A stretch of 58,975 bases of DNA from Actinomycetota bacterium (GTDB lineage: Bacteria > Actinomycetota > Acidimicrobiia > IMCC26256 > PALSA-610), in assembly GCA_005772765.1 (NCBI GenBank), contig SXIR01000170.1, positions 1-58,975 on the forward strand, in the 5' to 3' direction. The notes beneath the pieces were generated by a model. The model worked only from the letters and a program-made list of their open reading frames with translations. It searched no databases and was not told the origin of the DNA. Shown piece by piece: positions 4,696 to 40,320 of the stretch. Every line of letters begins with the position of its first letter. The first letter of the stretch is position 1. The position numbers and the translations under genes are program-made.

Positions 4696-6486
4696 ATGAC
4701 ACCAACGCCGGGCGGCGGCCGGGCGCAACGATTGGGCGCCATCGCGCCGGCCCTCGTGCTGTTCGTGGTCGGGGTCGTGGTCCCCGTACTCGTCGCCCGC
4801 CACTACAGCGCCCTCGGCGCTCCGAGGGGCGACGACTGGTCGTACCTCCGAACCCTGTTCACGTGGGTGGACACCGGGGAACTGAACTTCAACAACTGGG
4901 TGTCGATGACGTTGCTCGGCCAGCTGGTCGTCGCCGCTCCGGTGGTTTGGCTCTTCGGACGAGACATCGCCGTGGTGCAGACCCTGGTGGCGTTGGGTGG
5001 GTTCCTCGGGCTTCTTTCCGTGCTCGGCTGGGGCAAGTATCTCGACGGGCGACGCACCACAGGACTCGGGTTGGCGCTGGTCGTCGCGTCGGGCCCGATG
5101 TACGGCACGCTTGCCGTGAGCTTCATGACCGACGTCCCCGGTGTTGCTGCGTCGTGCGCGGCGGTGTTGTGCGGCCTGTACGCCGCGTCGGCGCCGAACA
5201 GATTGGCACGCGGTCTCCTCGGCGCGTTCGCCTTCGGGCTGTTCGGATTCACGATCCGTCAGTACTGCGTCGTGCCGGTTGTCGCGGTCACGGTTGTCGC
5301 CTGCTTGCTCGCCCGAACCGAAGGCGATCGAGGGTTTCAGCGAAAAGCGCTCTTGGGGGCTGCATCGATCGTGGGACTCGCCGTGCTCTTTCTCGTTGGG
5401 TGGAGCGCGGTGCCCGACGCGAAGGCGTTGAGCCCCAAGTGGCCCGACGGCCATGCGGTGCGTGCGTTGGTGTACGAAGGCGGCGGCATGTTGCGTCTCG
5501 CGGGGTTGTGGCTGGCCCCGGTCCTCGTCTGGGCGGGTCCGAGCGCGATCGTGCGGCGAGCGTGGCGCGCGTCATCGTGGATCACGGTGATTGCGGCCGG
5601 TTCGTGCGCCCTCGTGCTCGCCTTCACCGGACGAAACGCCCCGCGGATCGCCTTTGCGGGGAACTACTTCGTTCCCGATGGGATCCTGTCGAACGGAGTG
5701 AGCGCCGGGCCGCGCCCGGACTTGGTGCCGTCACCGTGGTGGGGGGTGCTCATTCTCGTGGGCACGGTCGGCGCCGTCGTGTTGGCGATTGCGATGGTCC
5801 CGGTCACGGTTGCGTGTTGGAAGCGGCTTCGCAGCCGCGATCTTTCTTTGCGCGACCCCGTCACCGTGTTGTTGGCGCTGACCAGCTTCGGATACGCCGC
5901 GACCTATGCGCTCGCCGCGCTGGTCGGGTTGCCGCTCTACGACCGCTATGTGTTGCCGATCATTCCGCTGGCCGGCGCTTCACTCATCCGGGCGGCACAC
6001 CTCGAGCGAGTCGCAGGAAACGCCGATGCGACACCACCGCGCCAGATGTCGTGGCGCCCTGCGGTGGCCGTGCTCGTCATCACGTCGGCGCTCGGGATGC
6101 TCTACACCGTCGACTCCGCGTCGTTCGACGGTGTTCGTTGGGGCGTGGCGAGCGACGCGACTCGCGCGGGCTGGCATCCGAAGCAGGTCGGCGGCAACTT
6201 CGAATGGATCAACTACTTCTCGGCCTCGCCCGGCTCGCTGGCGCGACGGCGGGCCCGCATCTGTGTTGTTGTGGTGCTGCGCGAGAACGGCCAGGGACCC
6301 ATGACCGCAGCACCACCGATCACCGATATCGCGGGTACCGAAATACGCGGGACGTACCGGCCGCCGTTTCGCGATCCGGTCGATGTCGTCGCGGTTCGCA
6401 ACCGACGTCCGTGCTGGCCGGGATTGGTGCCGGTCGAGCCCGTTCTCGGCGGAGATGAGGCGGCCGCCGCGGTGATCGGCCGATGA
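4696..6486 (+). CDS. GT-C superfamily (PMT/GT39-like) multi-pass glycosyltransferase, paralog 1
   Basis: 'PRGDDWSY' acidic motif after the first TM, 'SFMTDVPG', 'IRQY', 'YDRYVLP', many TM segments; ATG 4696 chosen as start. Confidence 0.75.
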   Translation: MTPTPGGGRAQRLGAIAPALVLFVVGVVVPVLVARHYSALGAPRGDDWSYLRTLFTWVDTGELNFNNWVSMTLLGQLVVAAPVVWLFGRDIAVVQTLVALGGFLGLLSVLGWGKYLDGRRTTGLGLALVVASGPMYGTLAVSFMTDVPGVAASCAAVLCGLYAASAPNRLARGLLGAFAFGLFGFTIRQYCVVPVVAVTVVACLLARTEGDRGFQRKALLGAASIVGLAVLFLVGWSAVPDAKALSPKWPDGHAVRALVYEGGGMLRLAGLWLAPVLVWAGPSAIVRRAWRASSWITVIAAGSCALVLAFTGRNAPRIAFAGNYFVPDGILSNGVSAGPRPDLVPSPWWGVLILVGTVGAVVLAIAMVPVTVACWKRLRSRDLSLRDPVTVLLALTSFGYAATYALAALVGLPLYDRYVLPIIPLAGASLIRAAHLERVAGNADATPPRQMSWRPAVAVLVITSALGMLYTVDSASFDGVRWGVASDATRAGWHPKQVGGNFEWINYFSASPGSLARRRARICVVVVLRENGQGPMTAAPPITDIAGTEIRGTYRPPFRDPVDVVAVRNRRPCWPGLVPVEPVLGGDEAAAAVIGR

Positions 6487-9400
6487 CCGACGCCCGTTCG
6501 TTGCCTCGCCCACTGATGTTCGGTCGTCTCGCCGAGCCGCGCGTGCAGCGGCTCGGCATCGCCGTCTTCGCGGCGCTTTGTTACGTCCCGCTGCTGTTGA
6601 CCGATCCGGGCAAGGTCCACGCGGATACGAAGAGCTACTTGTATCTCGATCCTTCGCGGCTCCTCGCCGGTGCGCGGTCGATGTGGGATCCCGAGATCGG
6701 CTTGGGGACGACGAGCCACCAGACGATTGGGTATCTGTTTCCGCTCGGCCCGTACTACTGGTTCACGATCGACGTGTTGGGAATGCCGGCGTGGATCGCG
6801 CAGCGGCTTGCGTTGGGAACGATGCTGTTCGCGGCCGGCATGGGCGTGCGGTATCTCCTGCGCGTCGTCGGGATCGGGGGCGCAGGGGTCGCCGTTGGCA
6901 TGATGGCCTACACCTTCACGCCGTACGTGCTCCAGTACTCGGCGCGCTTGAGCGTCTTGCTCGGTCCGTGGTCGGCGTTGCCGTGGTTGACGGCCTTCAC
7001 GATGTTGGCCCTCCGGCATGGCGGGTGGCGTTACCCGGCGCTCATCGCGCTGACGATCCAACTCGTTGGCTCCATCAACCTCACTGCCATCGTGCTCGTC
7101 GTCATCGGTCCGGTGCTCTGGGCTCCGTACGCGGTGATGGCGTTGCGTGAATGCGACTGGCGTCGGGTTGGTGGGCTCGCAGTGCGCGTCGCGTCGTTGT
7201 CCGTGTTCGCGTCGTTGTGGTGGATGTCGGGTTTGTGGGTCGAAGGCGGCTACGGGCTCAGCATCTTGCGGTTCACCGAGTCGATCCAGACCGTGGCCGC
7301 GACGTCGTATCCGTACGAGTTGTTACGCGGGCTCGGGTACTGGTTCTTCTACGGGAGAGACCGCATCGGTCACTGGAACGACGCGTTCTTGGTGTACTCG
7401 CTCAACGCATCGGTCGTCTTCGCAAGCCTTGCGATCCCGGCGCTGGCGTTCGCCGCCGCGGCCGTGACCCGATGGCGGCTCAAGGGCTATTTCGCGTTGC
7501 TCGTGTTGATCGGCGTGGCGATCGCCGTGGGATCCGCGCCGTACGACGACCCGTCGCCCCTCGGTTCGGTGTACAAGTCGTTTGCGACGACCTCGACGGT
7601 GGGGTTTGCCCTGCGCAGCACGGCGCGCGCTGCGCCGCTCATGGTGCTGGGATTGAGCGTCCTATTGGCCGCTGGCGTGACGGCATTCACCCGCGAACTG
7701 CGTGCGCTCGGGCGCACCAGGAGCGCCACGCTGATCCCCATCGTGATCGTGGGTCTTGTACTGCTCAACGCGCCAGGCGTCTGGAAGGGGAGCTATTACA
7801 GCGACTATCTCGCCCGCGACGAAGCGATCCCGCAGTATTGGACCGACGCACTCGCCGACCTCGACGCTGCGTCCCACGACACGAGGGTGTTGGCACTGCC
7901 GGGTGCCGACTTCGCCGCGTACCGATGGGGTGACACCGTCGATCCGATCGAACCCGGGCTGATCGATCGTCCGTACATCGCTCGCGAACTGGTTCCGTGG
8001 GGATCCGAAGCCACGACGAACCTCCTCGTTGCGCTCGATCGTCGGTTGCAGGAGGGGACGCTCGATCCCGACGCCGTTGCGCCCATCGCTCGGCTCATGG
8101 GCGTTGGCGACATCGTGTTGCGTTTCGATCTCGAAACAGACCGCTTCACGTTGATACCCGCCGGCCCGCTGTGGCAGACGTTCACCGACGCAAACGCCGA
8201 CACGGGTTTGCCCGACGGATTACGTGAGCCCGTGGGCTACGGCGACGAGATCCCGGGTTCGCTGCGATTCCCCGAGCTCGGCGACCTGGCCCGGCCGCCG
8301 TCGGAGGATCCCGACCCGCCGCCCGTCGCGGTCGTCGGTGTCGACGACCCGGTTCCAGTAGTTCGTTCGAAATCGGCCGTGCCGATCGTCGTCTCGGGCG
8401 ACGGCGACGGCCTCGTCGACCTCGCGGCAGCAGGTGTCATCGACGGCCACAGCCCCATCGTCTACTCGGGGTCGAATGCCGACGATCCTCGCGTGCTGCG
8501 CGATCTTCCCGATGGGGCCGTCCTCGTGGTCACCGACTCGAACCGTCGGCGCGGGATGCGCTGGGCCGGTCTCTACACGAACTACGGCTACACCGAAGTC
8601 GCGGGTGAAGAGCCGCTCCTCGATGATCTGCTCGACCAACGCCTCGTCGTCTTCCCCGACGCGGGCGACGACGCCGCGACGGTGACCGAACTGCGCGGCA
8701 TCGCGGACCTCCGCGCATCGCGCTACGGCACGGCTTCGTTCGGCTACAGCCCGGGTGAACGCCCGGCCATGATGTTCGACGGGAACCGCGAGACGTCGTG
8801 GGTTGTCGACGGCGGGTCGGAACTCACGAACCAATGGGTGACGATGGCGTTCGACGCGCCGATCACCACCGATCGCATCGAGATCGTGCAACCTCGAACG
8901 CAACGTACTCGGCGCTTCCTGTCGCGGATTTCGGTGCGGTTCGACGGTGGCCCGCGCGAGTTCTTCGACCTCGGGGCTGCGTCGCGGCGAATCGGCGGCC
9001 AGGCGCTGACGTTCGAAACGCGCACCTTCGAGCGGCTCGAGATCCGCATGGAAGCGACGAGCGGCGGCGGCGGGATCTACCTCGGAAACCTCAATCCCAT
9101 CGGCATTGCCGAGCTGCGAATCCGTGACACCGATCGCGGTCGTCGCATCCGGGTCGAGGAAGTCGCCCGGGTGCCGGTCGACCTCCTCGACGCGCTCGGA
9201 GCCGACAGCGACGGACATCCACTCGCGTTTGCCTTTGCTCGCGACCTGACGATGGACGGCACGAACCTGTGGCGCCGCTTCGAGGTGCCGAGTACGCGCT
9301 CGTTCGGATTGTCGGGGACGCTCCAGCTCAGCTCGTTTGCGGACGACGCCATCATCGACGAACTCCTCGGTATCCCGGCTGCGCGCGATGGCGGTGTCAC

Positions 9401-10901
9401 CGCAACCTCGAGCGGGCGACTCGGCGATCCGGCGACGAGAGGATCGGCCGCGCTCGACGGTGATCTGTCGACGGCGTGGATGACGCCGATCGCGTTCGTC
9501 AAGGAAGCGGCGATTCGGGTCGACCTTCCCGCACCTCGCGTCATCGATCACCTCGACCTGGCGTTCACCGCCGATGGTCGCCACTCGATGCCGACGCAAC
9601 TCACGATCTCGACGGCAACGGGCGACGAACGCGTTGTCGATCTGCCGGTGCTCGACCCTGCCCCGACGCCGACCGGTTACGTCACCGCTCGCGTCGACTT
9701 CGAACCGATCGAGACCGACGACCTCGAAGTCGAGATCAGCGACTTCCAGCCGGTCGAGCGCAGCGAAACCGTCATGCCGGCGGGCATCGTCGAACTCGGC
9801 ATCGAGGGCGTGCAGCGAGGTGCGCCGCAGGCGGGTCTTGCCCTCGAATGTCGTGACGATTTGCTCGAAATCGACGGAACGCCGATCGGAATTCGCGCCC
9901 GGGCTACCACGGTTGACCTCCTCGACCAACGGCGCGTCGAGTTCACGGCATGTGAGCCCGTCGAACTGGCCGGGGGCGCGCACGAACTGCGCAGCCGCAT
10001 GAATCCCGATTCGAGAACCGCGCTCGATCTCACCCGTGTGTTGCTCGTCTCGGACAGCCGCGGCGAGGCAGGGTCGATCGACGACGTCCGCCCCGTCGCT
10101 CAGGCGACGGCGCCGGTGATCATCGAGAACGGGCGAAGCCGGGTCTCCGCCCAGATTGCACCCGATGGCGGCAAACAGTGGTTGATCCTGGGCCAGAGCA
10201 TCAACCGCGGCTGGGTCGCGACCCTCGATGGTGAAGACCTGGGTGCGCCAGCGCTGATCGACGGGTATGCGAACGGCTGGCTCGTCGACACGGCGAGTTG
10301 GGATGGGCCGCGTCGCGTGGTCTTCGAGTGGCGTCCGCAGCGCATCGTGAGCCTGGCCACCTGGATCTCGGGCCTCGCGGCCGTCGGTTGCCTCGCGCTC
10401 GTCTGGCGGACCCGCCGGCGCCGTGGTTCTGCGCCCGCGCCGTTGTGGCCTGACGAGACTCCGTCGTTCGTCGGCGGCCCCCGATTCGCTCGACCCGCTG
10501 GCGAAAGCAACGTCGACTTCGCGGTGCCAGGTCTGCTGTCGACGGTGGTGCTCGGGTGCGCGGCTGCGTTACTGGTCGGGCCGATGGCTGGCGTGGCGGT
10601 CGTGGTCGTCTTGACGCTCGCAAGGGTCGACGGATGGATCGGTCGGGGTATCCGTTGGTTGCCGACCGCCGTGCTCGGCTTTGTCGCCTGTTTCATGGCT
10701 GGATCGCAGTTGCTCCGCGATCTGCCGCCCCGATTCGATTGGCCTTCGCAGTTCGAGTCGTTACGAGTGCCGACGTGGATTGCATTGTTTGCGTTCGTCG
10801 GGCTCGCAATCGCCGGGAGCCGAGCGTCGGCGCGGATCACGACGGCGGCCAACGCGACTGCGGCCATTCATGCGGCCATTCATGCGGACGGGGAACCGTG
10901 A
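6483..10901 (+). CDS. aftD: Alpha-(1->3)-arabinofuranosyltransferase AftD-like / DUF3367 protein
   Basis: 1472 aa; 'ADTKSYLYLDP', 'HQTIGYLFPLGPYY', 'ELLRGLGYW', 'IPQYW', two discoidin-like 'FDGNRETSW'/'LDGDLSTAW' modules, 'DGYANGW'; ATGA coupling. Confidence 0.85.
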   Translation: MTDARSLPRPLMFGRLAEPRVQRLGIAVFAALCYVPLLLTDPGKVHADTKSYLYLDPSRLLAGARSMWDPEIGLGTTSHQTIGYLFPLGPYYWFTIDVLGMPAWIAQRLALGTMLFAAGMGVRYLLRVVGIGGAGVAVGMMAYTFTPYVLQYSARLSVLLGPWSALPWLTAFTMLALRHGGWRYPALIALTIQLVGSINLTAIVLVVIGPVLWAPYAVMALRECDWRRVGGLAVRVASLSVFASLWWMSGLWVEGGYGLSILRFTESIQTVAATSYPYELLRGLGYWFFYGRDRIGHWNDAFLVYSLNASVVFASLAIPALAFAAAAVTRWRLKGYFALLVLIGVAIAVGSAPYDDPSPLGSVYKSFATTSTVGFALRSTARAAPLMVLGLSVLLAAGVTAFTRELRALGRTRSATLIPIVIVGLVLLNAPGVWKGSYYSDYLARDEAIPQYWTDALADLDAASHDTRVLALPGADFAAYRWGDTVDPIEPGLIDRPYIARELVPWGSEATTNLLVALDRRLQEGTLDPDAVAPIARLMGVGDIVLRFDLETDRFTLIPAGPLWQTFTDANADTGLPDGLREPVGYGDEIPGSLRFPELGDLARPPSEDPDPPPVAVVGVDDPVPVVRSKSAVPIVVSGDGDGLVDLAAAGVIDGHSPIVYSGSNADDPRVLRDLPDGAVLVVTDSNRRRGMRWAGLYTNYGYTEVAGEEPLLDDLLDQRLVVFPDAGDDAATVTELRGIADLRASRYGTASFGYSPGERPAMMFDGNRETSWVVDGGSELTNQWVTMAFDAPITTDRIEIVQPRTQRTRRFLSRISVRFDGGPREFFDLGAASRRIGGQALTFETRTFERLEIRMEATSGGGGIYLGNLNPIGIAELRIRDTDRGRRIRVEEVARVPVDLLDALGADSDGHPLAFAFARDLTMDGTNLWRRFEVPSTRSFGLSGTLQLSSFADDAIIDELLGIPAARDGGVTATSSGRLGDPATRGSAALDGDLSTAWMTPIAFVKEAAIRVDLPAPRVIDHLDLAFTADGRHSMPTQLTISTATGDERVVDLPVLDPAPTPTGYVTARVDFEPIETDDLEVEISDFQPVERSETVMPAGIVELGIEGVQRGAPQAGLALECRDDLLEIDGTPIGIRARATTVDLLDQRRVEFTACEPVELAGGAHELRSRMNPDSRTALDLTRVLLVSDSRGEAGSIDDVRPVAQATAPVIIENGRSRVSAQIAPDGGKQWLILGQSINRGWVATLDGEDLGAPALIDGYANGWLVDTASWDGPRRVVFEWRPQRIVSLATWISGLAAVGCLALVWRTRRRRGSAPAPLWPDETPSFVGGPRFARPAGESNVDFAVPGLLSTVVLGCAAALLVGPMAGVAVVVVLTLARVDGWIGRGIRWLPTAVLGFVACFMAGSQLLRDLPPRFDWPSQFESLRVPTWIALFAFVGLAIAGSRASARITTAANATAAIHAAIHADGEP

Positions 10902-12721
10902 CCGACGACCAAGCGATGATCCGAGACATGACGATGCGCTCCGGCGCCAGCGCGTCTGGTCGTTGGGAACGTCGTGATCTGCTGTGGATCGCTGCGTTCG
11001 TCGTTGTCGCAGTCGTCGTTCCGCTGGTGCTCACTGCCGGTGCCGGAGCGCTCGACGTACCGCGCAGTGACGACTGGTCGTACCTGCGGACCCTGTTCGC
11101 GTGGGACCGGACGGGGCGTTTCGACTTCAACGACTGGGTGTCGATGACGTTGGTCGGTCAGCTCGCGCTCGCCCGACCTGTGGTTGCGGTCTTCGGCGAG
11201 AGCATTGTTGCGGTGCGGGTCTTCACGGCGTTGTTGGGTGCTGCGGGCCTCGTCGCGGCGTACGGGTTCGCCCGCCGGTACGGCCTTCGGTCCTCCCACG
11301 CCGCGCTTGCGGTCGGTGGGCTCGCCTCGGGTCCGTTGTGGGGCCCGCTCGCGGCGAGCTTCATGACGGACGTCCCGGGGTTCGCGTTGCAGTCCGCTGC
11401 GTTGGTCGCCGCAGGTGTCGCGTTCGCGTCCGAGCGAGTGCGGCGCCCTGCCCTGGCAGTCGCTCTCGCTGCCGGTGTCGTCGCGATTTCGATCCGGCAG
11501 TACGCCGCGATTCCGCTGATCGCGATCGGACTCACCGCGTTGGTCGTGGCGGCGCGTCCCGCAGGCCGGGCCGATCGGCGCTGGATCCTTGCTTCGCTCG
11601 TCATTGCCGCGGTCGCGGTCGTGGCGGTGCTGGCGTCGTGGAGCGGCATTCCCAACCGACTCGCACTCGGGCCGCGCCTGCCCAACGGCGCGTCGTTGAA
11701 GCTCGCCTACATCAGTCTCGGTGGGTTCTTGCGCCTTGCGGGACTGTTCCAACTTCCGCTGCTGTTGGCGATCGGGCCGGGTCGCCTCCTGGCGCGGGCC
11801 TCGTCGACGTCGCGGGTCGCGACCCTGATGACGAGCGCGCTGGCCGCGACGGTGATGGTGACGACCTGGGCCCTCCAGCCGACCGTTCCGTTCGTCGGGA
11901 ACTACTTCGATCGTCGGGGAACGCTTGCCGACGACATCATCCACGGAAATCGACCCGATCTGATCCCGGGAATCGTGTTCGAGCTACTCACGGTCGCGGC
12001 ATCGCTCGCCGCGATCGCGATCGTTGTCGGTCTCGTCCCTGCGATCCAACGGATCGCGACATCGCCACGGGAGACGGTGCGGCACTGGCGGCGCGATGCG
12101 TCGCCGCTCGACCTGATCTTGGCGCTGACGTTGTTCGGCCAACTCGTGGCGTATGAACTCGCCATCGCGTTCCGCCTGCCGATCTTCGATCGGTACGTCC
12201 TCACCGCGCTTCCGCTCGTCGGTGTGGCGATGGTGCGCGCGGCGGGCCACGCCGGAACCGAACGCGCGAATGCCGCCGACGCCCGCCAACCGATATCGCA
12301 ACGTCCGCGCGTTGCGATGGCGTTCGCCGGTCTGGGTGTGTTGGCGGTGCTGGGAGCCACCTACACGTCGGAGTCGGCGGCGTTCGATGGCGGCCGGTGG
12401 CGGGCGGCCGAAGCGGCGGTCGCTGCGGGCCTGGCCGCCGAAGACATCGACGCGGGCTACGAGTGGAGCGGATGGTTTCGCGGTGTGGCTCCCGGGGTGC
12501 GTCCGTCCATCGAGGAGCGACGTCGGCTCCGTCGTCAATACGTCCAAGGTCTCTGCGTCCAGGTCGTGATCGATCCGCAGCGCCCACCGACCCGAGTGGT
12601 AGCCGAAGTGGCCGTCGACGGGTGGTTCCGGTCTTCGGCGCGGCTCTTCGTCGTCCCGACGGGCCGGGAGTGCGCTTCGGGAGCGGATCTCGATGCCATC
12701 GCGCCCGCGCCGGGCTCCTAG
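10898..12721 (+). CDS. GT-C superfamily glycosyltransferase, paralog 2
   Basis: 'PRSDDWSYLRTLF', 'SFMTDVPG', 'IRQY', 'FDRYVL'; clearly homologous to 4696-6486; GTGA overlap with aftD stop. Confidence 0.75.
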   Translation: MTDDQAMIRDMTMRSGASASGRWERRDLLWIAAFVVVAVVVPLVLTAGAGALDVPRSDDWSYLRTLFAWDRTGRFDFNDWVSMTLVGQLALARPVVAVFGESIVAVRVFTALLGAAGLVAAYGFARRYGLRSSHAALAVGGLASGPLWGPLAASFMTDVPGFALQSAALVAAGVAFASERVRRPALAVALAAGVVAISIRQYAAIPLIAIGLTALVVAARPAGRADRRWILASLVIAAVAVVAVLASWSGIPNRLALGPRLPNGASLKLAYISLGGFLRLAGLFQLPLLLAIGPGRLLARASSTSRVATLMTSALAATVMVTTWALQPTVPFVGNYFDRRGTLADDIIHGNRPDLIPGIVFELLTVAASLAAIAIVVGLVPAIQRIATSPRETVRHWRRDASPLDLILALTLFGQLVAYELAIAFRLPIFDRYVLTALPLVGVAMVRAAGHAGTERANAADARQPISQRPRVAMAFAGLGVLAVLGATYTSESAAFDGGRWRAAEAAVAAGLAAEDIDAGYEWSGWFRGVAPGVRPSIEERRRLRRQYVQGLCVQVVIDPQRPPTRVVAEVAVDGWFRSSARLFVVPTGRECASGADLDAIAPAPGS

Positions 12722-12888: not shown

Positions 12889-13683
12889 ATGAGCACGAAG
12901 ACAGTGACGCGACGCAAGGCGGTCGTGTGGAGCGCTCGTGCCGGAGCCGTGGTTGCCGTTGGCGCGTGGGCAGCACCCAAGTTCGAACTCGCGGGTGCGA
13001 CCGGCACCGGAACGGGCACCGGGACGGGTTCGACGACGATTCCGCCGACCAACCCTCCGACGACCGATCCCACCGTCACGACGGCCGGGACGGGTACTGG
13101 CACCGCTGGCTCACCGTGTCCGGATCCAGATGCTCCGGCGTGCAACGAAGAAACCACCACGACGCGCCCGGGCGCCGGCAAGCGCGTCAGTTGTTCGGTG
13201 GAACCCGAAGAAGTTCGACCGAATGCCAAGGCAACGTTTCGCGGTGAGGGCTGGGAATCATCGAGCACCGTGATCATCAAGATCGTCGGCTTCGGCAAGA
13301 TCGGTGAGGCCGCAGTGCAGCCGAATGGTTCGTTCGAGCGCTCGTTGACGATTCCCGACCTGGCGAACGGCAACTATCGCGCCGAGGTCGTCGGCAGCGA
13401 CGCCGAGGGTGACGAAGCCCGCTGCTTCGACGACATGACCGTCAACCGTCAAGGCGGTACCGGCACCGGTTCTGTGACCACCGGTGGCGGCAACTCCGGC
13501 AGCGGCGGATCCGACAACAACGGATCGGGCAGCGCAGGCAGCGGGGGAGGCACCTTGCCCTTCACCGGCTCGGATTCGACGAACCTGCTCGCACTCGGTG
13601 CTGGTGCACTCGTCGTCGGTCGGGTGCTCTACGGCGTACGTGAGCGGCTGGCCGAACGAGATGCCGCCCTCGCCGATTCCTGA
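12889..13683 (+). CDS. Sortase-anchored (LPFTG) surface protein with Tat-like/RiPP-leader-like N-terminus, Thr-Gly repeats and one Ig-like domain
   Basis: MSTKTVTRRKAVV...GAWAAPKFELAGA-TGTGTGTGTGS; Pro/Thr linker; ~90-aa beta-rich domain; Gly/Ser linker; LPFTG (13555-13569) + hydrophobic stretch + RER tail. Confidence 0.75.
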   Translation: MSTKTVTRRKAVVWSARAGAVVAVGAWAAPKFELAGATGTGTGTGTGSTTIPPTNPPTTDPTVTTAGTGTGTAGSPCPDPDAPACNEETTTTRPGAGKRVSCSVEPEEVRPNAKATFRGEGWESSSTVIIKIVGFGKIGEAAVQPNGSFERSLTIPDLANGNYRAEVVGSDAEGDEARCFDDMTVNRQGGTGTGSVTTGGGNSGSGGSDNNGSGSAGSGGGTLPFTGSDSTNLLALGAGALVVGRVLYGVRERLAERDAALADS

Positions 13684-14014
13684 ACCGCAGTCGAGCACTC
13701 CGCATCGGACGTCGGCTTCCTTCGTCGTCGGCGCCGACGTCGTCGTTCGTCGCTACGGTGACGTCGTGCTTGCCTGCTCCAGCTCCGTTGGCACCTTCGT
13801 TGCTCCGACCGTCGTGCGGATCAGCGGCACCGCCCTCGTGGTGTGGGACGCATTGGCGGCCGAACCCGATCTCGAGCGGCTCGGTCGACGCATCGCGCAG
13901 CGTTACACGATCGACGAGACCGTCGCAGCAGCCGACGTCCGTGACGTCGTTGCAGATTGGTGCGCCGCTGGCATCGTCGAGGTGATCGACCCGAGCGAAG
14001 CGCCCAAACCGTGA
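13661..14014 (+). CDS. PqqD-family RiPP recognition element (RRE) protein 1
   Basis: 'ISGTALVVWDAL..DLERLGRRIAQRYTIDETVAAADVRDVVADWCAAGIVE' fits the PqqD 3-strand/3-helix pattern. Confidence 0.8.
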   Translation: MPPSPIPEPQSSTPHRTSASFVVGADVVVRRYGDVVLACSSSVGTFVAPTVVRISGTALVVWDALAAEPDLERLGRRIAQRYTIDETVAAADVRDVVADWCAAGIVEVIDPSEAPKP

Positions 14015-15132
14015 CCGACAACGCGCCGTCGCGTTCGGTTCCCGCTCGGCGCGATCTTGCGGTCGCGATTGCCACGTTCGGCATGACGGAAGGGCCACGA
14101 TTTCCGCGCGCGCCGCTCGACGCGGAGGCGTGGGCGCACCTCATGACCGACGTGTCGTCGCAGCGTCTGCTCGGGCTCGCGGACGCCGCGATCACCGCGG
14201 GCTTTCCCGTGACCGAGCCGCAGGCAACCGACGTTCGGCGCGCCGCCGAGGCGCAAGCGATCGATTGCCTCGCGCTCGACACCATGCTGGTTGGTCTCGC
14301 CGACGAGTTCGATCGGGTCGGCATCGATTTCCGAGTGTTGAAAGGACCCGGTGTTGCTCGCCGCTTCTATGCACGGATCGAATGGCGGCCGTATGGCGAC
14401 ATCGATCTCCTCGTTCGACCCGACCAATGGGATCGCGCGGCTGCACACCTCGTGGAACTCGGTTGTGTACGCCGGTTCGACGAGCCGCGCGCCGGTTTCA
14501 CGGCACGTTTCGGGAAAGGTGCAAGTTTCGTCACGCCGTCGAACTACGAGGTCGACCTGCACCGCACTTTCGTCGCGGGCCCGCACGGATTGGCGTTCGA
14601 CCCGAACCTGTTGTTCACATCGCCGGTGACCTTCGATGTCGGCGGTCGGACCTTGCCCATGTTGAGTGACGTGCACGGGGCGATCCACGTCGGGATGCAC
14701 GCCATACTCGGCAGTGCTGCGCCGCGATGGATCCCGCTCCGCGACTGCATCCAGATCGTTCGGTCCGGGTTGGAGGTCGACGACCTCGTCAGCGCCGCCG
14801 CCGACCTCGGCGCGCGCTGGCCTTTGGCGCTCGCACTGCGCCACGCGCACCGCGACCTCGCGATTCCGATCGACAGCGCGATCGAACAGTGGGGCAATGA
14901 CTACCGCCCGACCGCACGAGAAGCGCGCGCGGCCGAGGTGTATCGCAGCACCGATCAGCGTTACTCGCGCCAGGCGCTGGCCGGACTGCGCGCCATTCCC
15001 ACTTGGCGGGCACGCGCCGAGTACGCCGCAGCGCTCGCCCTTCCTGACCCCGCGTATCGTCGGCGGCGCGAGCAATCACTCGTTGGCCGTCTTCGGTTGT
15101 CGGCCCGTCTGGCGCGACGCGCCCGACCATGA
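14011..15132 (+). CDS. Nucleotidyltransferase family protein (NTP_transf_5 type)
   Basis: 'RVLKGPGVARRFYARIEWRPYGDIDLLVRP' and 'EVDLHR'; GTGA coupling to PqqD. Confidence 0.85.
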   Translation: MTDNAPSRSVPARRDLAVAIATFGMTEGPRFPRAPLDAEAWAHLMTDVSSQRLLGLADAAITAGFPVTEPQATDVRRAAEAQAIDCLALDTMLVGLADEFDRVGIDFRVLKGPGVARRFYARIEWRPYGDIDLLVRPDQWDRAAAHLVELGCVRRFDEPRAGFTARFGKGASFVTPSNYEVDLHRTFVAGPHGLAFDPNLLFTSPVTFDVGGRTLPMLSDVHGAIHVGMHAILGSAAPRWIPLRDCIQIVRSGLEVDDLVSAAADLGARWPLALALRHAHRDLAIPIDSAIEQWGNDYRPTAREARAAEVYRSTDQRYSRQALAGLRAIPTWRARAEYAAALALPDPAYRRRREQSLVGRLRLSARLARRARP

Positions 15133-15938
15133 CTCGCGCGGTCGCAACTTTTCGGGCGCTCGACGCGCGATGGACCGTCGAGGCCTCTCCGTGGTGGGTC
15201 GAACGGATCGCGACGGTCTTCGCCGCGACGCAGGTCAGCGACGATGCGAACGAACCGGCGGATCTGCAGTTCCGGATCGAGGGCGACGGTCCCGCGACGC
15301 TCACGAGCGCCGGACATTCGCTTTTGCGGGATGTACGTGTGGCCGCTGTGCTCGACCGCATCGTGTGGGAGGTGAACCAACTTGCGTGGCGTGCGAATCC
15401 CGCCGCGGTCTTGGTGCACGGCGGCTTGGTCGAACGCGCTGGACGTGCGGTCCTCGTGACCGGCCCCTCCGGGGTTGGAAAGACGACCCTCGTCGCGAGC
15501 CTCTGTCTACGCGGATTCGGTTACCTCTCCGACGAGATTGCCGCGCTCGGTCCGAGCGGACCGACTGCCTTCGCGAAACCGTTGTCGATTCGGCCCGGGG
15601 CGCAAGCGAGGTTCGGTCCGTTCGCGCCGCCCGCTGATCTTTCCGAGCTGATGACGAGTGCCTGGTACGTCCCGTTGGCGTCGGCGACCGCCAACGAGGT
15701 CGCAGTCGTTGTCTTCGTCGATCACGACGACCAGCGCTCGACGGCGCTGCGTCGCGTGCCGCGCGCCGAAGCCTTGGTCCGGCTCTGCGACCAGACCCCC
15801 AACCTGGCGGCGTCAGGTGCCGTCGGTTTTCGGCGGCTTGCCGCGATGGTCCGCGGCGCGCAGTCGGTCGACCTTGTGGCCAACGATCTCGGCCTTGCGG
15901 CGGATCTCGTCGTCGACGTGCTGGAATCACCCCGATGA
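15129..15938 (+). CDS. HprK-related P-loop kinase (PadeK / HPr-rel type)
   Basis: 'VLVHGGLVERAGRAVLVTGPSGVGKTTL...GFGYLSDEIAAL': His, Walker A and SDE signature; ATGA coupling. Confidence 0.85.
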   Translation: MTRAVATFRALDARWTVEASPWWVERIATVFAATQVSDDANEPADLQFRIEGDGPATLTSAGHSLLRDVRVAAVLDRIVWEVNQLAWRANPAAVLVHGGLVERAGRAVLVTGPSGVGKTTLVASLCLRGFGYLSDEIAALGPSGPTAFAKPLSIRPGAQARFGPFAPPADLSELMTSAWYVPLASATANEVAVVVFVDHDDQRSTALRRVPRAEALVRLCDQTPNLAASGAVGFRRLAAMVRGAQSVDLVANDLGLAADLVVDVLESPR

Positions 15939-16171
15939 CGGTGCGTCCGGTGGGTGCGTTGGTGGTCGAGGTGCTCGACGGCGAAGCGGTGATCTTTGCA
16001 CCCGCCGATGGACGCGTGCACCGACTCAACGAGATTGCCACTCGGTGGTGGTCGAACATCACTGCGGGAATCGAACCCGATGATCCAGCCGATCGAGAGG
16101 AATACGCCGAGTTCGTTGCGCAACTTGCGACCGCAGGACTCGTCGTCGATGTCGACGGGCGGCGTCGGTGA
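15935..16171 (+). CDS. PqqD-family RRE protein 2 (short)
   Basis: 78 aa: 'VEVLDGEAVIFAPADGRVHRLNEIATRWW...FVAQLATAGLV'. Confidence 0.8.
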   Translation: MTVRPVGALVVEVLDGEAVIFAPADGRVHRLNEIATRWWSNITAGIEPDDPADREEYAEFVAQLATAGLVVDVDGRRR

Positions 16172-17226
16172 ACCTCGATGCGCTGGCGCTCGGTGTGCTG
16201 TTCGGAGGCTTCGGTGTCCTCGTCGGCGCGGTGTTCATCTTCTTGGTAGGTCGGCGCGGGCACGCCGATGGTGGTCTCGGCGTGTGGGTGGCCGCAGCCG
16301 GACTGTTGGCCGTCGAGTACACGAGCGAGGTCACCCAGCTCGTGCCGTGGGCGGCGATCGCTGCGATCGTTGTCCTCGCTGGTGGTGGGCTCTTCTTCGA
16401 CCGCGTGCCTGCTCGCTGGTCGCCGCTGGTGTTCGTGCCCGGCGCGAGTGCTCTGGCGCTGGTGCCCTTGAACGGGATCGAGCTGCAGACTCGAGTTGCG
16501 CTCGGGCTGATCACACTGGTTGCGTGCGTCGGGGCCGCCGACTTCGAACGCGCCCACGTGAGTGACGGCTTCGCCTTGTGGCTGTTCCCCGTCACCGCGC
16601 TTGTCCCCGCGCTCCTCATCGATGGTGGGACCGAACCGGGTTGGGCCTTTGCCGGTGCGTCGGCCGTGATGGTGGTCAACGTGATTCCTCGCCCGCGGGC
16701 TCGGCTCGGCGCGCCGGGTATCGCAGCGCTCGTCGGTGCGTACCTCTGGGTCGGAACGCTGTTGTCGGCGAATCGGGCGGTTCGGATGGCAACCCTGTTT
16801 GCCGGCTTGGGGTTTGTCGTCCTCGAGCCGCTTGCGCGCAATCTCGGGCGCATCGAAGCGCGGGGGCGCCGTCGGACGGGCAAGCGTCTCCAGGATCGTG
16901 ATGCGGTCATCATCGCGACTGGGGTGTTCGGCCAGGCAATCATCGGGTTCTTCGCAGTCCGCGTCACCGGGCACAGCCGCCGCTCCGAGTATGCGTTGTT
17001 GGTGTTGCTGGCGGTGCTGTCGGCGTTCACCGCAACCGCCCGGGCGTTCGTGCCCGCGGCGAACCGTCGACGCACAGGCGACTCGCGGCGACGCTCAGGC
17101 GGGCGTTCTCGGCGCGGGGCAACGTGGGTGCGGGCGGTTACCGGCGACCGATCGCACCGGAGCCACCGCGGTCGTCACCGCGGTCGTCATCGCAGTCGTC
17201 ATGGCGACGGTCGCGACAACGTCTGA
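16168..17226 (+). CDS. Multi-pass membrane protein, possibly degenerate MraY/WecA (glycosyl transferase family 4)-like, with Arg/His-rich tail
   Basis: About 10 hydrophobic segments; 'NVIPRPRARLGAPG' loosely resembles 'N.PPA.IFMGD.G'; GTGA coupled to PqqD2. Confidence 0.5.
   Translation: MNLDALALGVLFGGFGVLVGAVFIFLVGRRGHADGGLGVWVAAAGLLAVEYTSEVTQLVPWAAIAAIVVLAGGGLFFDRVPARWSPLVFVPGASALALVPLNGIELQTRVALGLITLVACVGAADFERAHVSDGFALWLFPVTALVPALLIDGGTEPGWAFAGASAVMVVNVIPRPRARLGAPGIAALVGAYLWVGTLLSANRAVRMATLFAGLGFVVLEPLARNLGRIEARGRRRTGKRLQDRDAVIIATGVFGQAIIGFFAVRVTGHSRRSEYALLVLLAVLSAFTATARAFVPAANRRRTGDSRRRSGGRSRRGATWVRAVTGDRSHRSHRGRHRGRHRSRHGDGRDNV
17164..17203 (+). repeat. 12-bp imperfect tandem repeat (caccgcggtcgt) encoding HRGR-HRGR-HRSR-H
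   Basis: Read directly from the sequence. Confidence 0.7.
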
Positions 17227-17263: not shown

Positions 17264-18835
17264 TCAAACCGATTCGGGATCGAGTTCGAAGCGTCGTTGC
17301 ATGATCGACGTGTACTTGACCGGCTTGGGCCGCTCGGGCATCGAGAGCAAGATGAACAAGAACGGCAGGATCTGCGTTCGTTGGCGAGCGAGAATGCCGA
17401 AGTTCGCGAAGTTGCCGAACACGATGACGAAGAACACGACCGCGACGATGGCGAAGATCGCGTACGCGTAATCGCGACGAATCGATTTCAGGAGGCGTCG
17501 TCCCGCGATCGCGAGGGCGATCGCGTACGCAAACGACTCGACCGACGTGACGAGTTCTTGGGGCGAGGTGGCCTCGACGGGTAGCGGGCGGAACAGCACG
17601 GTGATCGCACGCATCGGAAAGTTCCAAGCTGGCGCAGGCGTGAACTGCGACCCGCCCTGTTCGGTGCGGTCCTGGGCGGCGTCGAACTCGTCGGTGACCG
17701 CGCTGGTGCCGTCGAGCAGGTTCGTGCCGAAGTAGTCGTTCGCCTGAGTGAGGACGAACGACCCAAGGGTGATCAGTAAGAAGAACGTCGCCACCGTGCC
17801 CGATGCCTTGACGCCCTTGCGCTTGCGCAACAAGAGCGCGATTGTCATCGCAACGGTGACGACCATCGCGACGTGGGTGCGCACGTAGGTGACTTCGATG
17901 ATCCCGCCGGCAATGCACACCGCGCCGATGATCGTTGCGTTCGTGAGCATCAGCGCCACGCCGTACGTCGCCAGTCCGAGACCGAAGATGGCGAGCGCTT
18001 CCTTGCCGATCGATGACGGCCAGTACATGAGCGACGGCGCGAACATCACGAGCAGCAGGTACCGACGCTGGGCTTCGGGGAACACCCTGCGAAAGCCACG
18101 GGCGAAGAGCAACAAGCCCATGAGGCCGATCCACGAGAAGAACACGAAGCCACCGATCTTGGTGGGTGTCGTGTAGTGGTAGAACTCGGCGGTCACGATC
18201 CGCACGAAGTTGGTGCTGGTCCACTTGTTGACGTTCGGCAGCGTTCCTTGGCTCAGGTAGTCGGCCGCCCACTTCCGGCCGTAGAGGTCGTACTCGCTGG
18301 CATCGGACCGGTCGTAGACGCTGGTACCGACGTAGAACCGGGCCAGTGTGCCGAGCAGCTTGAGTGAGAGCGACGCGCTGAGAATGACCGTCAGCTCGGG
18401 CGCGCCATCGGCCTTGGCGAGACGTTTGAAGATCGAGATCGAAAGGGTCGCTAGCGCCGCCGCGATGAACGTCGCTGCGACCAGCTCGGAGTCGCCGGTG
18501 GCGATTCCCGATGCCAGCATCGTGGCGACCGCGAACCCGCCGGCGACACACAAACCAACCGCCCATCCGTGGTTCGCTGCATCGCCGTCGTCGAGACCGA
18601 GCCGCGCGGCGGCATCGTCGGATTCAGCTGCAGGTTCGGTTGCCTTGTCGTGATCGAACGGCAGCAACGTATCGTCGGCGAGTTCGAATCGGCCTCGGGG
18701 CGCGGGAGACGGCGCGCCGTCGGGCAGGGTTGGCGACGCGGCCGGCTCGTCGTCGTCGAGCCAGTGCCCCCGTCGATGGACGCGCGGGGCCGGACGTTCG
18801 GGCTGCTCGCCCTGGTCGTCGAGCCAGGCGCGCAC
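17264..18835 (-). CDS. Putative polysaccharide polymerase / GT-C-like membrane protein
   Basis: Likely GTG 18835 just after the kinase stop; 'SDASEY', 'PSLMYWPSSIGKEAL', 'NFGILARQRTQILP', many TMs. Confidence 0.6.
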   Translation of the reverse strand: MRAWLDDQGEQPERPAPRVHRRGHWLDDDEPAASPTLPDGAPSPAPRGRFELADDTLLPFDHDKATEPAAESDDAAARLGLDDGDAANHGWAVGLCVAGGFAVATMLASGIATGDSELVAATFIAAALATLSISIFKRLAKADGAPELTVILSASLSLKLLGTLARFYVGTSVYDRSDASEYDLYGRKWAADYLSQGTLPNVNKWTSTNFVRIVTAEFYHYTTPTKIGGFVFFSWIGLMGLLLFARGFRRVFPEAQRRYLLLVMFAPSLMYWPSSIGKEALAIFGLGLATYGVALMLTNATIIGAVCIAGGIIEVTYVRTHVAMVVTVAMTIALLLRKRKGVKASGTVATFFLLITLGSFVLTQANDYFGTNLLDGTSAVTDEFDAAQDRTEQGGSQFTPAPAWNFPMRAITVLFRPLPVEATSPQELVTSVESFAYAIALAIAGRRLLKSIRRDYAYAIFAIVAVVFFVIVFGNFANFGILARQRTQILPFLFILLSMPERPKPVKYTSIMQRRFELDPESV

Positions 18836-18840
18836 GGGAC

Positions 18841-20592
18841 TCAGTCGCCGATACCGATCGGGACGTCGAGGTCGAGGTCCGTGTCGTCCTTGCCCTTGCG
18901 ACCGAAGAGCTTGCGCGGCTTCTCGCGACCGGCGGGCGCGGGCGGACCGACCTTGCGGCCGTAGCCGTAGCCGTAGCCATACCCGTAGCCATACCCGTAG
19001 CCGTACCCGTAGCCATACCCAGGACGGGAGCTGACCGCACCGACGAGCACGATGCCCAGCACGGGGGCGTCGAGGCGGCGAAGCTGTTGGGTCGCTCGTT
19101 CGAGCGCGTTCACCTTGGTGACGGCATCCTTTGCCATGAGCACAACGGCGTCGGCGTAGGGGAGCAGGTCGAAGGGGTCGTTCGTCACGAGCAGCGGCGG
19201 CGTGTCGATGAGCACGATGTCGAAGAGTTCTCGTGCCTTGACGATGGCGGCCTGCCCGGCGAGCGTCGCATCGGCCGGCGACGACGAGGGCGAGGCGCTG
19301 TTGATGAAGAACACGCCCGGGATCGACGTTTCCTGCGCGAGCGCTTCGACGTCGACGATCGGGTCGGCAAGCGTGCCGGAGTTCTCGAGGAAGAGTTCTG
19401 CGTCGGTATCGAGGAACTTGTGCAACCGCCGGCGGCGGTAGTCGAGGTCGAGCACGAGCACTCGCTTGCCCATCTCGGCGTACGCGGCGGCGAGGTTCGC
19501 AGTGCTGGTCGACTTGCCCTCGGACGGGCCGGCCGAGGTGACCATCACGCACTGCGGCGCGGGCGGGTCGCCTTCTTGCGCATTCGCCATCCACATCAGC
19601 TCGACCGAAGTGCGCAGTCCCCGATACGCGTCAGCAGTTCTCGAGCTCGGAGCTTGGTGGGTCAACACGTCGAAGCGTCGACGACGCGAAGGCGATACGA
19701 ACGGGATCTCGGCAAGCACGGGTAGGCGAGTGACCGTCTCGGCGGAGCGAACGCCGAAGATCGATGTGTCCGAACGATTCATCGCGTACGCAGTGATTGC
19801 GCCGAGCAAGAGTCCAACGACCAGGCCGAGCGCGAGGCGGGCCGGACGGCTGTCGGGAATTTTCACGCTGTCGGTCGTCGACAGCGGTAGCGGTTGCACG
19901 TCGGCGAACTGCACCGAGAACACCGGCTTCTTGCGGTTGAACAAGTCCTCTTGGCGGCGGAACTGTTGGCGAAGCTCGCGCATTTCGCTGCGCTTCGCCG
20001 TGAGCGCTCGACCAATGACCCGCTTGTCGTCGGCGGTGAGCGCAGCCGCGAAATCCTTTTCGAGATCGGCTTGTTCTTCAGACGCGAGGTTGATCTTGTC
20101 CTGGGTTTCCTGCAAGCGAGCGGTGAGCTTCAGGTCGTCCTTGGCGTCCTCGAAGCGGACGAGTTCATCGGCGAGTGACTTGACGATTCCGCGTACCGCG
20201 AACGCGTCCGGTCCGGTCCCCGTGATCGTGATGAGGTTGCGTGGGGCTTCGGGGTTCGCGTCGATGCTCACGTTCGCGATGCGCGTGGTGCGAGGGGAAA
20301 ATCGGTCGTCGGTGTTCTTCAGTTTGGACGGCGTGAAGTCGGGCGGCTGCAGCAAGATCTTGCGGATCGCGTTGGGTACTTCGCCTTCGGTCGCGTCGAG
20401 CGCCACGACATCGAGGTTCACTTTGCCGGTGGCCTTGACGCGCTGGGTTCCGACCCACTGCGTCGTCGTCTCGGAGGTCGACGTTCCGCCCGGCGACGCG
20501 GTGAAGAACGAGACGAGGCAACCGATCGCCATGAACATCGCGATGAGACGCCACCGGCGTCGGATCGCGATGAGGATGTCGAGTGCCCGCAC
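18841..20592 (-). CDS. wzc: Wzc-like polysaccharide co-polymerase / BY tyrosine autokinase
   Basis: Two TMs flanking a coiled coil; Walker A 'SAGPSEGKST', A' 'VLVLDLD', B 'VLIDTPP'; C-terminal (GY)10. Confidence 0.9.
   Translation of the reverse strand: MRALDILIAIRRRWRLIAMFMAIGCLVSFFTASPGGTSTSETTTQWVGTQRVKATGKVNLDVVALDATEGEVPNAIRKILLQPPDFTPSKLKNTDDRFSPRTTRIANVSIDANPEAPRNLITITGTGPDAFAVRGIVKSLADELVRFEDAKDDLKLTARLQETQDKINLASEEQADLEKDFAAALTADDKRVIGRALTAKRSEMRELRQQFRRQEDLFNRKKPVFSVQFADVQPLPLSTTDSVKIPDSRPARLALGLVVGLLLGAITAYAMNRSDTSIFGVRSAETVTRLPVLAEIPFVSPSRRRRFDVLTHQAPSSRTADAYRGLRTSVELMWMANAQEGDPPAPQCVMVTSAGPSEGKSTSTANLAAAYAEMGKRVLVLDLDYRRRRLHKFLDTDAELFLENSGTLADPIVDVEALAQETSIPGVFFINSASPSSSPADATLAGQAAIVKARELFDIVLIDTPPLLVTNDPFDLLPYADAVVLMAKDAVTKVNALERATQQLRRLDAPVLGIVLVGAVSSRPGYGYGYGYGYGYGYGYGYGYGRKVGPPAPAGREKPRKLFGRKGKDDTDLDLDVPIGIGD
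18961..19020 (-). repeat. 6-bp coding repeat giving a (Gly-Tyr)10 tyrosine cluster
   Basis: 60 nt of gtagcc/ataccc/gtaccc units. Confidence 0.9.
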
Positions 20593-39772: not shown

Positions 39773-40320
39773 TGGGGAAGGTCGATGTCTTCGTGACGGT
39801 CGGAACCGACCATCACGCGTTTGATCGCGCCGTGCACCGAGCCGATGAGCTTGCCCGTCGCGGCCGCTCGGTCGTCGTGCAGTACGGAACGTCGCGCCCT
39901 CCCGAGGTCGCGGAGGGGTACGACTACGTACCGATCGGTCGTCTCGAAGAACTCATGCGCACCGCGGCGGTCGTCGTGACCCACGGCGGGCCGGCGACGA
40001 TCATGCAGGCTCGCGACCTCGGCGTGCTTCCGGTCGTCGTCGCCCGCGACCCGGAGCACCACGAGCACGTCGATGGCCACCAGATGCGATTCGCCGCGCG
40101 TCTCAGCGGGTTGGGCACCGTGGTCGACGGCCAGGCCGACGAGGCCTTCTACGCGGCAATCGACCGCGCGCTCGCGAACCCCGACGAGTTCCGAGTGGCG
40201 ACGACCTCGGCGCGCACCGACGAGGTCGTTGCCACGATCGGCGATCTCATCGACACCATGGTCGCAACCCGACGTGACGGCGCGAAACCGGCGCGCACCC
40301 GCCGGTGGTGGCGACGATGA
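39772..40320 (+). CDS. Alg13/PssE/Cps14G-like glycosyltransferase subunit
   Basis: 'FVTVGTDHHAFDR', 'VVTHGGPATI', 'EHVDGHQ'. Confidence 0.9.
   Translation: MGKVDVFVTVGTDHHAFDRAVHRADELARRGRSVVVQYGTSRPPEVAEGYDYVPIGRLEELMRTAAVVVTHGGPATIMQARDLGVLPVVVARDPEHHEHVDGHQMRFAARLSGLGTVVDGQADEAFYAAIDRALANPDEFRVATTSARTDEVVATIGDLIDTMVATRRDGAKPARTRRWWRR

Follow-up and report, generated by a model that had tools for sequence, protein, structure and literature searches.

Linear polyphosphorylated peptide (LPP) clusters, a Bacillota family of peptides that are ribosomally synthesised and modified post-translationally (RiPPs), combine a RiPP recognition element (RRE), an HprK-like kinase and an NTP-transferase within capsule loci, and do so without a lasso cyclase. 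According to the available part of the report by Popov et al. (Nat Commun 2026; PMC13381572), their precursors are 35-200 amino acids long with a conserved YxxP leader, the kinase LppK polyphosphorylates Ser3 of a 45-residue core, and LPPs and paeninodins alike are restricted, in the authors' view, to the Bacillota. The same partial source gives the RRE-binding motif of lasso and LPP leaders as [Y/W]xxPx[L/V/I/F/A], the W or Y being the main specificity determinant. As to the lasso tailoring enzymes, the portions of the literature at hand describe PsmN as adding a hexose to phospho-Ser, with a D134A/D136A mutant being inactive (PMC6993621), and the lasso kinases as carrying a His-Lys-Asp-Asp motif (PMC9266682). 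Here, a cassette of related genes was examined in the window, a stretch of 58,975 nucleotides that is contig C155 of a freshwater actinobacterial metagenome-assembled genome (MAG; G000, 3.6 Mb, 80% complete). Between positions 12889 and 17226 a gene for an LPFTG-bearing surface protein precedes genes for a PqqD-family RRE (PqqD1), an NTP_transf_5 nucleotidyltransferase (NTase), an HprK-like kinase, a second PqqD (PqqD2) and a membrane protein. With moderate confidence, the neighbouring leader-bearing protein is considered to be the substrate of the RRE/kinase/NTase cassette, which would thereby represent an actinobacterial relative of LPP/paeninodin-type phosphorylation.

The distribution of the cassette was followed by means of its kinase. 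A single-protein query (E<=1e-3, weak P-loop matches included) detected homologues in 40 of 61 close relatives, while the kinase family was found in 59 of 301 Acidimicrobiia genomes using a 13-sequence profile (E<=1e-15) and in 41 of the 401 Actinomycetota genomes sampled (E<=1e-20); flanks were taken from none of the five among these 41 that are flagged as unpublished. Flanking sequences were collected for 80 loci picked by kinase score, which, since loci L084 and L085 overlap, correspond to 80 distinct places including the window. The resultant set comprises 61 loci from Acidimicrobiia (60 distinct after the merge) and 20 from other Actinomycetota lineages, and the named relatives from a related-locus search, which gave only eight loci, are Acidimicrobiia or 'Actinomycetes' MAGs. 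Genes were called by combining a listing of open reading frames (ORFs), a codon log-odds caller trained on the window's own genome and family scans (Pfam, NCBIfam), and the genes of the loci were labelled by best match and then by hidden Markov models built from the loci.

Reading of the neighbouring frames from stop to stop revealed that all share an N-terminus composed of a twin arginine, a hydrophobic stretch and W-x-x-P, with R8, R9, W27 and P30 forming the sole invariant columns in an alignment of 26 neighbours. A filter for this leader, RR-x(12-24)-[WY]-x-x-P plus a hydrophobic run, identified a leader ORF in 39 of the 61 Acidimicrobiia loci (38/60 distinct), lying no more than 1 kb from a cassette gene in 27, and in 16 of the 20 loci from elsewhere in the phylum. 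Overall, a leader ORF adjoins the kinase/RRE cassette in 54 of the 80 distinct loci. The same filter applied to the remaining 3.54 Mb of the window's genome returned a single ORF, which is not signal-like, and in a looser pattern scan of the whole genome the LPFTG protein was the only signal-type match; further leader-bearing ORFs were not found on the contig. The enrichment of leaders near cassettes is real, though not a clean statistic.

The leaders also agree in features outside the filter's definition. Position +5 from the W is I, V, F, L or M in 70 of 70 unique leader ORFs, and position +7 is S or T in 58 of them. An A-rich stretch resembling an AxA signal-peptidase site follows at +12 to +15, after which comes a region rich in G, S, T, P and C, such that the S/T-rich residues lie beyond the predicted cleavage site. 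Since W-x-x-P-x-[IVFLM] matches the motif [Y/W]xxPx[L/V/I/F/A] in the available part of PMC13381572, the leader in the window has a known form of RRE ligand. Of the 61 Acidimicrobiia loci, 14 have a protein with an LPxTG-type end, as against none of the 20 loci from other lineages; the remaining leader ORFs terminate in ..CC(P) or encode small Cys-rich proteins, sometimes in arrays, with tandem arrays of three to four leader ORFs lying beside the kinases of L075, L080 and L072. The substrate class is defined, therefore, by the Tat-like (twin-arginine translocation) WxxP leader and not by the sortase anchor. The initial annotation had proposed that the LPFTG protein is bound by the RREs, phosphorylated and further decorated, and then anchored, and had expected homologous cassettes to have a neighbour with both an RR..WxxP leader and an LPxTG end. 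The recurrence of the leader, which in the window's protein reads RR...W-x-x-P-x-F, makes the neighbour very probably the substrate, and the leader part of that expectation stands; the LPxTG part does not extend beyond a minority of loci, and the chemistry, the RRE binding and the anchoring are matters of inference.

A second C-terminal signature apart from LPxTG is evident among leader ORFs of 160-490 amino acids in L040, L059, L060, L063, L064, L067, L069, L077, L079, L082 and L108, which have a hydrophobic run and a Cys-rich end (..YCCP or ..CCPR, with variants ..YCRP and ..FCCKP).

The genes of the cassette and its immediate neighbours are as follows.

12889..13683, + strand: LPFTG protein, candidate precursor and substrate, 264 amino acids; no Pfam or NCBIfam family
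13661..14014, + strand (ATG start): PqqD1, a discrete RRE of the PqqD family, paired with the NTase gene; Pfam PqqD 1.3e-8
14011..15132, + strand (likely GTG start): NTP_transf_5 nucleotidyltransferase; NTP_transf_5 5.3e-24
15129..15938, + strand: HprK-like P-loop kinase; TIGR04352 7.6e-20, Hpr_kinase_C 1.8e-5
15935..16171, + strand: PqqD2, the other discrete RRE, which pairs with the kinase gene; Pfam PqqD 5.7e-5, 23.8 bits against a cut-off of 23.4
16168..17226, + strand: membrane protein, 352 amino acids, 11 helices, MraY/WecA (PNPT)-like predicted fold; no family
17264..18835, - strand: polytopic membrane protein, probably GT-C/PMT_2-like, on the basis of ESM-Atlas features and synteny; a lead only
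18841..20592, - strand: fusion of a Wzz-type polysaccharide co-polymerase with a BY tyrosine autokinase, ending in a (GY)n tail; TIGR01007 9.2e-24 and Wzc 2e-22, both below cut-off
10898..12721, + strand: PMT_2-like GT-C glycosyltransferase directly upstream of the precursor gene; Pfam PMT_2 3.7e-7

The ATG of PqqD1 sits 23 nt inside the 3' end of the LPFTG gene, and the subsequent junctions are start/stop overlaps of four bases (GTGA at 14011, ATGA at 15129, ATGA at 15935 and GTGA at 16168). The overlapping run from LPFTG protein to membrane protein that had been read from the window was thus confirmed, with all six genes and their coupling junctions in place, as was its placement in a surface-glycan locus. 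An AftD-like GT-C and two PMT_2-like GT-Cs lie upstream; downstream, on the opposite strand, the membrane protein at 17264-18835 and the Wzz/BY-kinase are followed by an MBOAT gene, and the glycan context of the window also includes Bac_transf and sulfotransferase genes. A PMT_2-like neighbour upstream of the precursor gene is present in L025 as well.

The LPFTG protein has its twin arginine at R8 R9 (nt 12910-12915), followed by W27-A-A-P30-K-F32 (nt 12967-12984). After the leader come a T/G-rich disordered linker, an immunoglobulin (Ig)-like beta-sandwich at about residues 98-188 (nt 13180-13452), a G/S-rich linker, the LPFTG motif, a transmembrane helix and a tail. LPFTG occupies residues 223-227 (nt 13555-13569), with a hydrophobic stretch and a charged tail behind it (RVLYGVRERLAERD...). 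The invariant residues in the alignment of its homologues are R8, R9, W27, P30, C102, C179, L223, P224 and G227. AlphaFold2, supplied with eight homologues, folds only residues ~98-188, as a seven-strand Ig-like sandwich (pLDDT >95) containing the two invariant Cys, for which the Foldseek matches are generic (CARDB, MG and FN3-like); the rest is predicted as a disordered T/G/S-rich linker, a signal helix and an anchor helix. Six relatives were found in a large protein collection, each being unnamed or 'hypothetical'. The LPXTG motif, hydrophobic stretch and basic tail, together with three sortase genes in the genome, suggest that the protein is a sortase substrate.

Two further observations on this protein were made. 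The tail past the anchor (13570-13680), GRxLYxLRxRxA...D, is conserved across eight homologues and is about twice the length of the tails on the other LPxTG proteins of the genome. In L025, from a genome of the same genus (G001), the homologue at ~10949-11634 matches in two frames (query residues 1-128 and 138-258), this being a frameshift or assembly error that leaves the leader part intact.

As regards export, the twin-arginine signal model TIGR01409 scores above its cut-off in five of nine tested members of the family and just under it in two more, and the genome encodes TatC and one signal peptidase I. The latter, the only such gene detected, and tatC lie ~2 kb apart on contig C55 (8959-9459 and 11446-12096).

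Both enzymes appear capable of activity. In the kinase, H97, G117-K118-(S/T), D135 and E136 are invariant in 13 homologues, K118 being the Walker-A lysine, and H97/K118/D135/E136 would correspond to the His-Lys-Asp-Asp motif of the lasso kinases. Its best solved relative is HprK/P (3e-6), and its Hpr_kinase_C match (1.8e-5) falls below the Pfam cut-off. In the NTase, numbered from the GTG at 14011, the metal motif G-D130-x-D132 is intact, and all 14 homologues retain D130 and D132. These motifs suggest that kinase and NTase alike are functional.

Among lasso RREs, the family profile of PqqD1 matches TfuB1 (3.5e-8) and that of PqqD2 matches TbiB1 (7.8e-13); the PqqD1 profile also matches PqqD (3e-9), and the PqqD2 profile two PqqD-family entries from 2026 (5e-7). 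Of 45 NTase genes, 36 have a PqqD-like ORF directly upstream, and 51 of 79 kinase genes have one next to them, a pairing that suggests one RRE per enzyme. The PqqD2 of the window is ~15-20 residues shorter than its relatives, with a gap after the conserved W where residues are present in all eight aligned homologues; the shortened protein may be impaired or simply minimal. A co-fold in which residues 20-117 of PqqD1, the PqqD2 protein and the leader (residues 1-48) were each supplied as an alignment scored 0.24 against a mark of 0.32 in a run without controls, and was counted neither for nor against binding.

The 352-residue membrane protein is present only in type I loci, in which the gene order is that of the window. 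Its AlphaFold2 model (pLDDT 67) drew 37 top Foldseek rows that were all MraY, WecA-type or DPAGT1 (E 1e-3 to 0.1, TM ~0.5) before the matches fell to noise, and its Atlas model gave a TM of 0.58 to a WecA-like cluster; no DD motif was seen in the alignment among its invariant residues. A role as an exosortase-like sorting enzyme was considered and set aside, as nothing was found in its support and the fold predicted is like that of MraY/WecA. For the protein at 17264-18835, Pfam and NCBIfam scans gave no match, but its ESM-Atlas features score 0.98 to clusters in which 48-77% of members carry PMT_2. It is probably a GT-C/PMT_2-like glycosyltransferase, an assignment best treated as a lead and not as a family placement; an O-antigen ligase was also considered for it and dropped, given the lack of a Wzy_C or other Pfam match and the direction in which the Atlas features point.

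The gene order of the window, namely a ~260-residue LPFTG-type protein, PqqD, NTase, kinase, PqqD and membrane protein, then divergent GT-C-like and BY-kinase genes, is repeated in seven loci (L025-L029, L031 and L032), the PqqD after the kinase being detected in L025, L026, L029 and L031 and not in L027, L028 or L032. Elsewhere the commonest order (17 of 61 loci) runs from Wzz/BY-kinase through PqqD, NTase, GT-C-like and kinase to PqqD, so that a homologue of the 17264-18835 protein sits between the NTase and kinase genes; where such loci have an LPFTG-type gene, it is small and on either strand. A Wzz/BY-kinase gene flanks the cassette in most loci.

Variants of the cassette also occur. L033, L035, L039 and L042 have the kinase without the NTase, beside GT4 and WecA-like genes, and add a PqqD, a Cys-rich protein of ~300 residues and a fusion of PqqD with an AhpC/TSA thioredoxin-like domain; a leader ORF was detected in none of these four loci. 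In L043 (8982-12278) and L061, NTase and kinase are encoded in one long open frame (1098 amino acids in L043), with a divergent Cys-rich leader ORF of ~155 amino acids, lacking LPxTG, ~1.1 kb away.

Other genes of the surroundings include several large surface or glycan proteins, within 1-3185, 6483-10901, 25466-28786 and 30639-35645, these being an Acyl_transf_3 and sulfatase fusion, a 1472-residue AftD-like GT-C that contains carbohydrate-binding modules, a PA14 protein and a 1668-residue DUF11/CARDB protein. In three type I loci the gene immediately upstream of that for the precursor is a Sulfotransfer_3 gene (L027 12101-13150, L028 12193-13233 and L032 336-1322); the sulfotransferase of the window is at 40305-41264, 23 kb downstream.

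A mechanism can be envisaged in which the 264-residue protein is made with a Tat-like signal carrying W-x-x-P-x-[IVFLM] at the end of its hydrophobic region, and PqqD1 and/or PqqD2 would dock on this motif in the cytoplasm. The HprK-like kinase would then add one or more phosphates to the Ser/Thr-rich segment with which the mature region begins, as presented to it by the RREs, and the NTP_transf_5 enzyme would decorate the phosphate with a hexose or nucleotide; the phosphorylation and the decoration are proposed on grounds of homology. After export, a general signal peptidase would cut the leader at the A-rich site ~12-15 residues past the W and, in the subtype found in the window, a sortase would fix the modified protein to the wall via LPFTG. 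The GT-C-like protein, the BY-kinase and the PNPT-fold protein would probably elaborate or use the mark on the cell surface. In this scheme the RRE-leader contact, the residue modified, the chemistry, the dependence on Tat, the sortase anchoring and the link to glycan are what we infer.

Several observations weigh against this proposal. The leader filter was made final after two stricter versions, which had given 0-22 loci (background, in successive versions, four matches in two ORFs, then one, then one), and was thus loosened twice after the sequences had been inspected, which renders the leader counts descriptive only; the loci, moreover, come from related genomes and were chosen by kinase score, and the background is a single genome. 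No leader ORF was found within the flanks taken for 26 of the 80 loci, some of which end at contig edges. TIGR01409 does not report the LPFTG protein of the window even at E<=1, its n-region reads TRRKAVV where SRRxFLK is usual, and export might conceivably proceed by Sec instead of Tat. GC content at third codon positions is 0.66-0.78 in the cassette genes versus 0.81-0.84 in the flanks, with codon log-odds per residue about half those of flanking genes, and this deviant usage suggests horizontal acquisition or weak expression. The sequencing runs listed for this DNA are five DNA metagenome runs from three studies, with none of RNA among them. In the heterologous system described in the available part of PMC13381572, LppN, the counterpart of the NTase, was without detectable activity.

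That 17 of 61 loci have the GT-C-like gene within the cassette, with BY-kinases adjoining, also tells against the proposal, and could indicate that kinase and NTase act instead on a sugar, a polyprenyl-linked intermediate or the BY-kinase, the PqqDs serving as adaptors and the LPFTG protein being merely co-regulated and perhaps O-glycosylated. The window is itself a glycan locus, the kinase has a weak match (4.6e-5) to FomB, a small-molecule kinase, and the PNPT-fold protein is coupled to the cassette by the GTGA overlap in type I loci, all of which would fit. However, such an arrangement leaves unexplained why a leader with the form of an RRE ligand stands beside the cassette in 54 of 80 loci; many of these loci, furthermore, contain just a kinase and PqqD genes together with small Cys-rich leader ORFs in tandem, and have no GT-C match nearby, and both PqqD profiles match peptide-binding lasso RREs. 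A glycan-directed role of the cassette is regarded as rather doubtful. Alternatively, RR...WxxP could be no more than a lineage-specific flavour of Tat or Sec signal that clusters here through shared surface loci and is not recognised by RREs. The motif does lie inside a genuine-looking signal peptide, and the co-fold gave no verdict. Yet the 3.6-Mb genome holds a single such signal, beside its only PqqD/NTP_transf_5 locus, and its other LPxTG proteins lack the motif; together with the 27 of 61 loci in which a leader ORF is so close to a cassette gene and the uniformly hydrophobic +5 position, as in RRE ligands, this makes coincidental clustering improbable.

The cassette might also serve to tailor a lasso peptide, with the cyclase, B2 peptidase and precursor of that peptide encoded in the 20% of the genome that the MAG lacks, given that paeninodin and pseudomycoidin are tailored by the same enzyme trio and that completeness is only 80%. 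As noted in the initial annotation, no lasso cyclase, B2 peptidase, radical SAM gene or short precursor is evident on the contig, and the absence of B2 and cyclase extends to the genome as sequenced: no Transglut_core3 match exceeded its cut-off, the only Asn_synthase match is a PP-loop protein resembling MnmA, encoded next to a cysteine desulfurase, and the ten radical SAM matches are all on other contigs. The possibility that cognate lasso genes elsewhere account for the cassette was pursued in five relatives carrying the same locus (89-100% complete) as well; none has a B2 match, and a full-length Asn_synthase is present in just one (G012), unaccompanied by B2. In addition, the genome's one PqqD locus and one NTP_transf_5 locus are both at the cassette. 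With no B2 and no true cyclase in the genome, and no B2 in the five relatives, the lasso-tailoring explanation is very unlikely. The C-terminal Ser of the LPFTG protein, considered as a paeninodin-like kinase target, was rejected, as it is not conserved in seven aligned relatives.

If the neighbouring leader-bearing protein is indeed the substrate, then a type of phosphorylation so far described only for short Bacillota peptides would apply to full-size wall-anchored proteins, blurring the boundary between RiPP biosynthesis and ordinary post-translational modification; the RRE/kinase/NTase logic would be widespread in Actinomycetota, and a general export signal would serve as a RiPP leader. 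The pattern RR-x(12-24)-W-x-x-P-x-[IVFLM] provides a sequence handle for finding such substrates, and the association of leader and cassette points to a testable link between peptide-type modifications and surface polysaccharide assembly. A bolder and, as it stands, unlikely extension is that the RREs are 'proofreading' chaperones of the Tat signal which hold the protein until a phospho-glycosyl mark has been placed on Ser/Thr, the mark then priming a polysaccharide via the GT-C-like protein, the PNPT-fold protein and the BY-kinase to yield a sortase-anchored proteoglycan. This would amount to a protein-borne route for fixing capsule to the actinobacterial wall, and would give LPP-type modifications a biological role.

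The RRE-Finder paper (PMC7470986) does not mention HPr, nucleotidyltransferase or kinase. Searches of the literature library found no paper combining twin-arginine signals with RiPP recognition elements and leader peptides and none joining at least three of the terms HPr kinase, PqqD, exopolysaccharide and exosortase; 'HprK-related kinase' occurs in none of the papers listed, and the one paper listed of two for NTP_transf_5/PF14907 is on phosphonates. A functional parallel to the chaperone idea is offered by the Tat signal-peptide chaperones TorD, DmsD and NapD. Like these, the RREs are small cytoplasmic proteins proposed to bind a Tat signal and to hold the substrate until its cytoplasmic maturation is done. 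They differ in having the RRE winged helix as opposed to the TorD fold, and in that maturation here would be phosphorylation or glycosylation and not cofactor insertion; RRE binding is, in addition, a prediction.

HPr-rel-A cassettes, in which a TIGR04352 kinase is accompanied by a PqqD-family partner, are found near proteobacterial exopolysaccharide (EPS) and PEP-CTERM loci. The present cassette resembles them in that TIGR04352 (HprK_rel_A) is the best NCBIfam match of the kinase, and in its PqqD partner, its EPS/BY-kinase neighbourhood and a neighbour with a C-terminal sorting signal. Assignment of the kinase to HPr-rel-A was nevertheless not upheld, since the match reached 71.1 bits against a cut-off of 200; neither PqqD matches TIGR04353 at E<=0.01, and sorting is of the Gram-positive LPxTG type and not PEP-CTERM.

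With the paeninodin/pseudomycoidin systems (PadeK/ThcoK/PsmK and PsmN), as far as the partial sources go, the cassette shares an HprK-like kinase together with an NTP_transf_5-type enzyme (PMC6993621, PMC9266682), an NTase DxD at nearly the same position as D134/D136 of PsmN (PMC6993621) and a WxxP-type leader. It lacks their cyclase, B2 peptidase and short precursor, and the residue modified cannot be a conserved C-terminal Ser.

The closest likeness is to the LPP clusters. The annotation of the cassette as a wholly new system has to be given up in this respect, as RRE, HprK-like kinase and NTP-transferase without a cyclase in capsule loci are already on record in the available part of PMC13381572. 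Common to both are discrete PqqD-like RREs, of which the cassette has two, with profiles matching TbiB1 and TfuB1; the pair of HprK-like kinase and NTP-transferase; the capsule/polysaccharide setting; an N-terminal leader with [Y/W]xxPx[hydrophobic] ahead of a variable remainder, present here in the W form; and, as predicted for the cassette and described in the part of the LPP work at hand, removal of the leader by a signal-peptidase-type cut. There are also differences. The host phylum is Actinomycetota, a twin-arginine signal doubles as the leader, which carries W where LPP leaders have Y and lacks the longer LPP consensus (..VLxHQxIxFETxxS), and there are two RREs, one per enzyme. The cassette has neither a signal peptidase I of the archaeal type (LppS, SipW-like), the sole Peptidase_S26 match of the genome being on contig C55, nor an MsbA-like ABC exporter, the 11 ABC_membrane matches of the genome all lying off the window's contig; plausibly, the Tat-like signal replaces the dedicated peptidase and exporter of the LPP clusters. 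The candidate substrates, from ~100 to >1000 amino acids, include here an LPFTG protein with an Ig-like domain, and a GT-C-like protein and BY-kinase are co-conserved with the cassette. Since the RRE, the kinase/NTase pair and the leader motif are present, and the dedicated peptidase and exporter were looked for and are absent, the cassette appears to work in an LPP-like manner without being a member of the LPP family as that family was defined.

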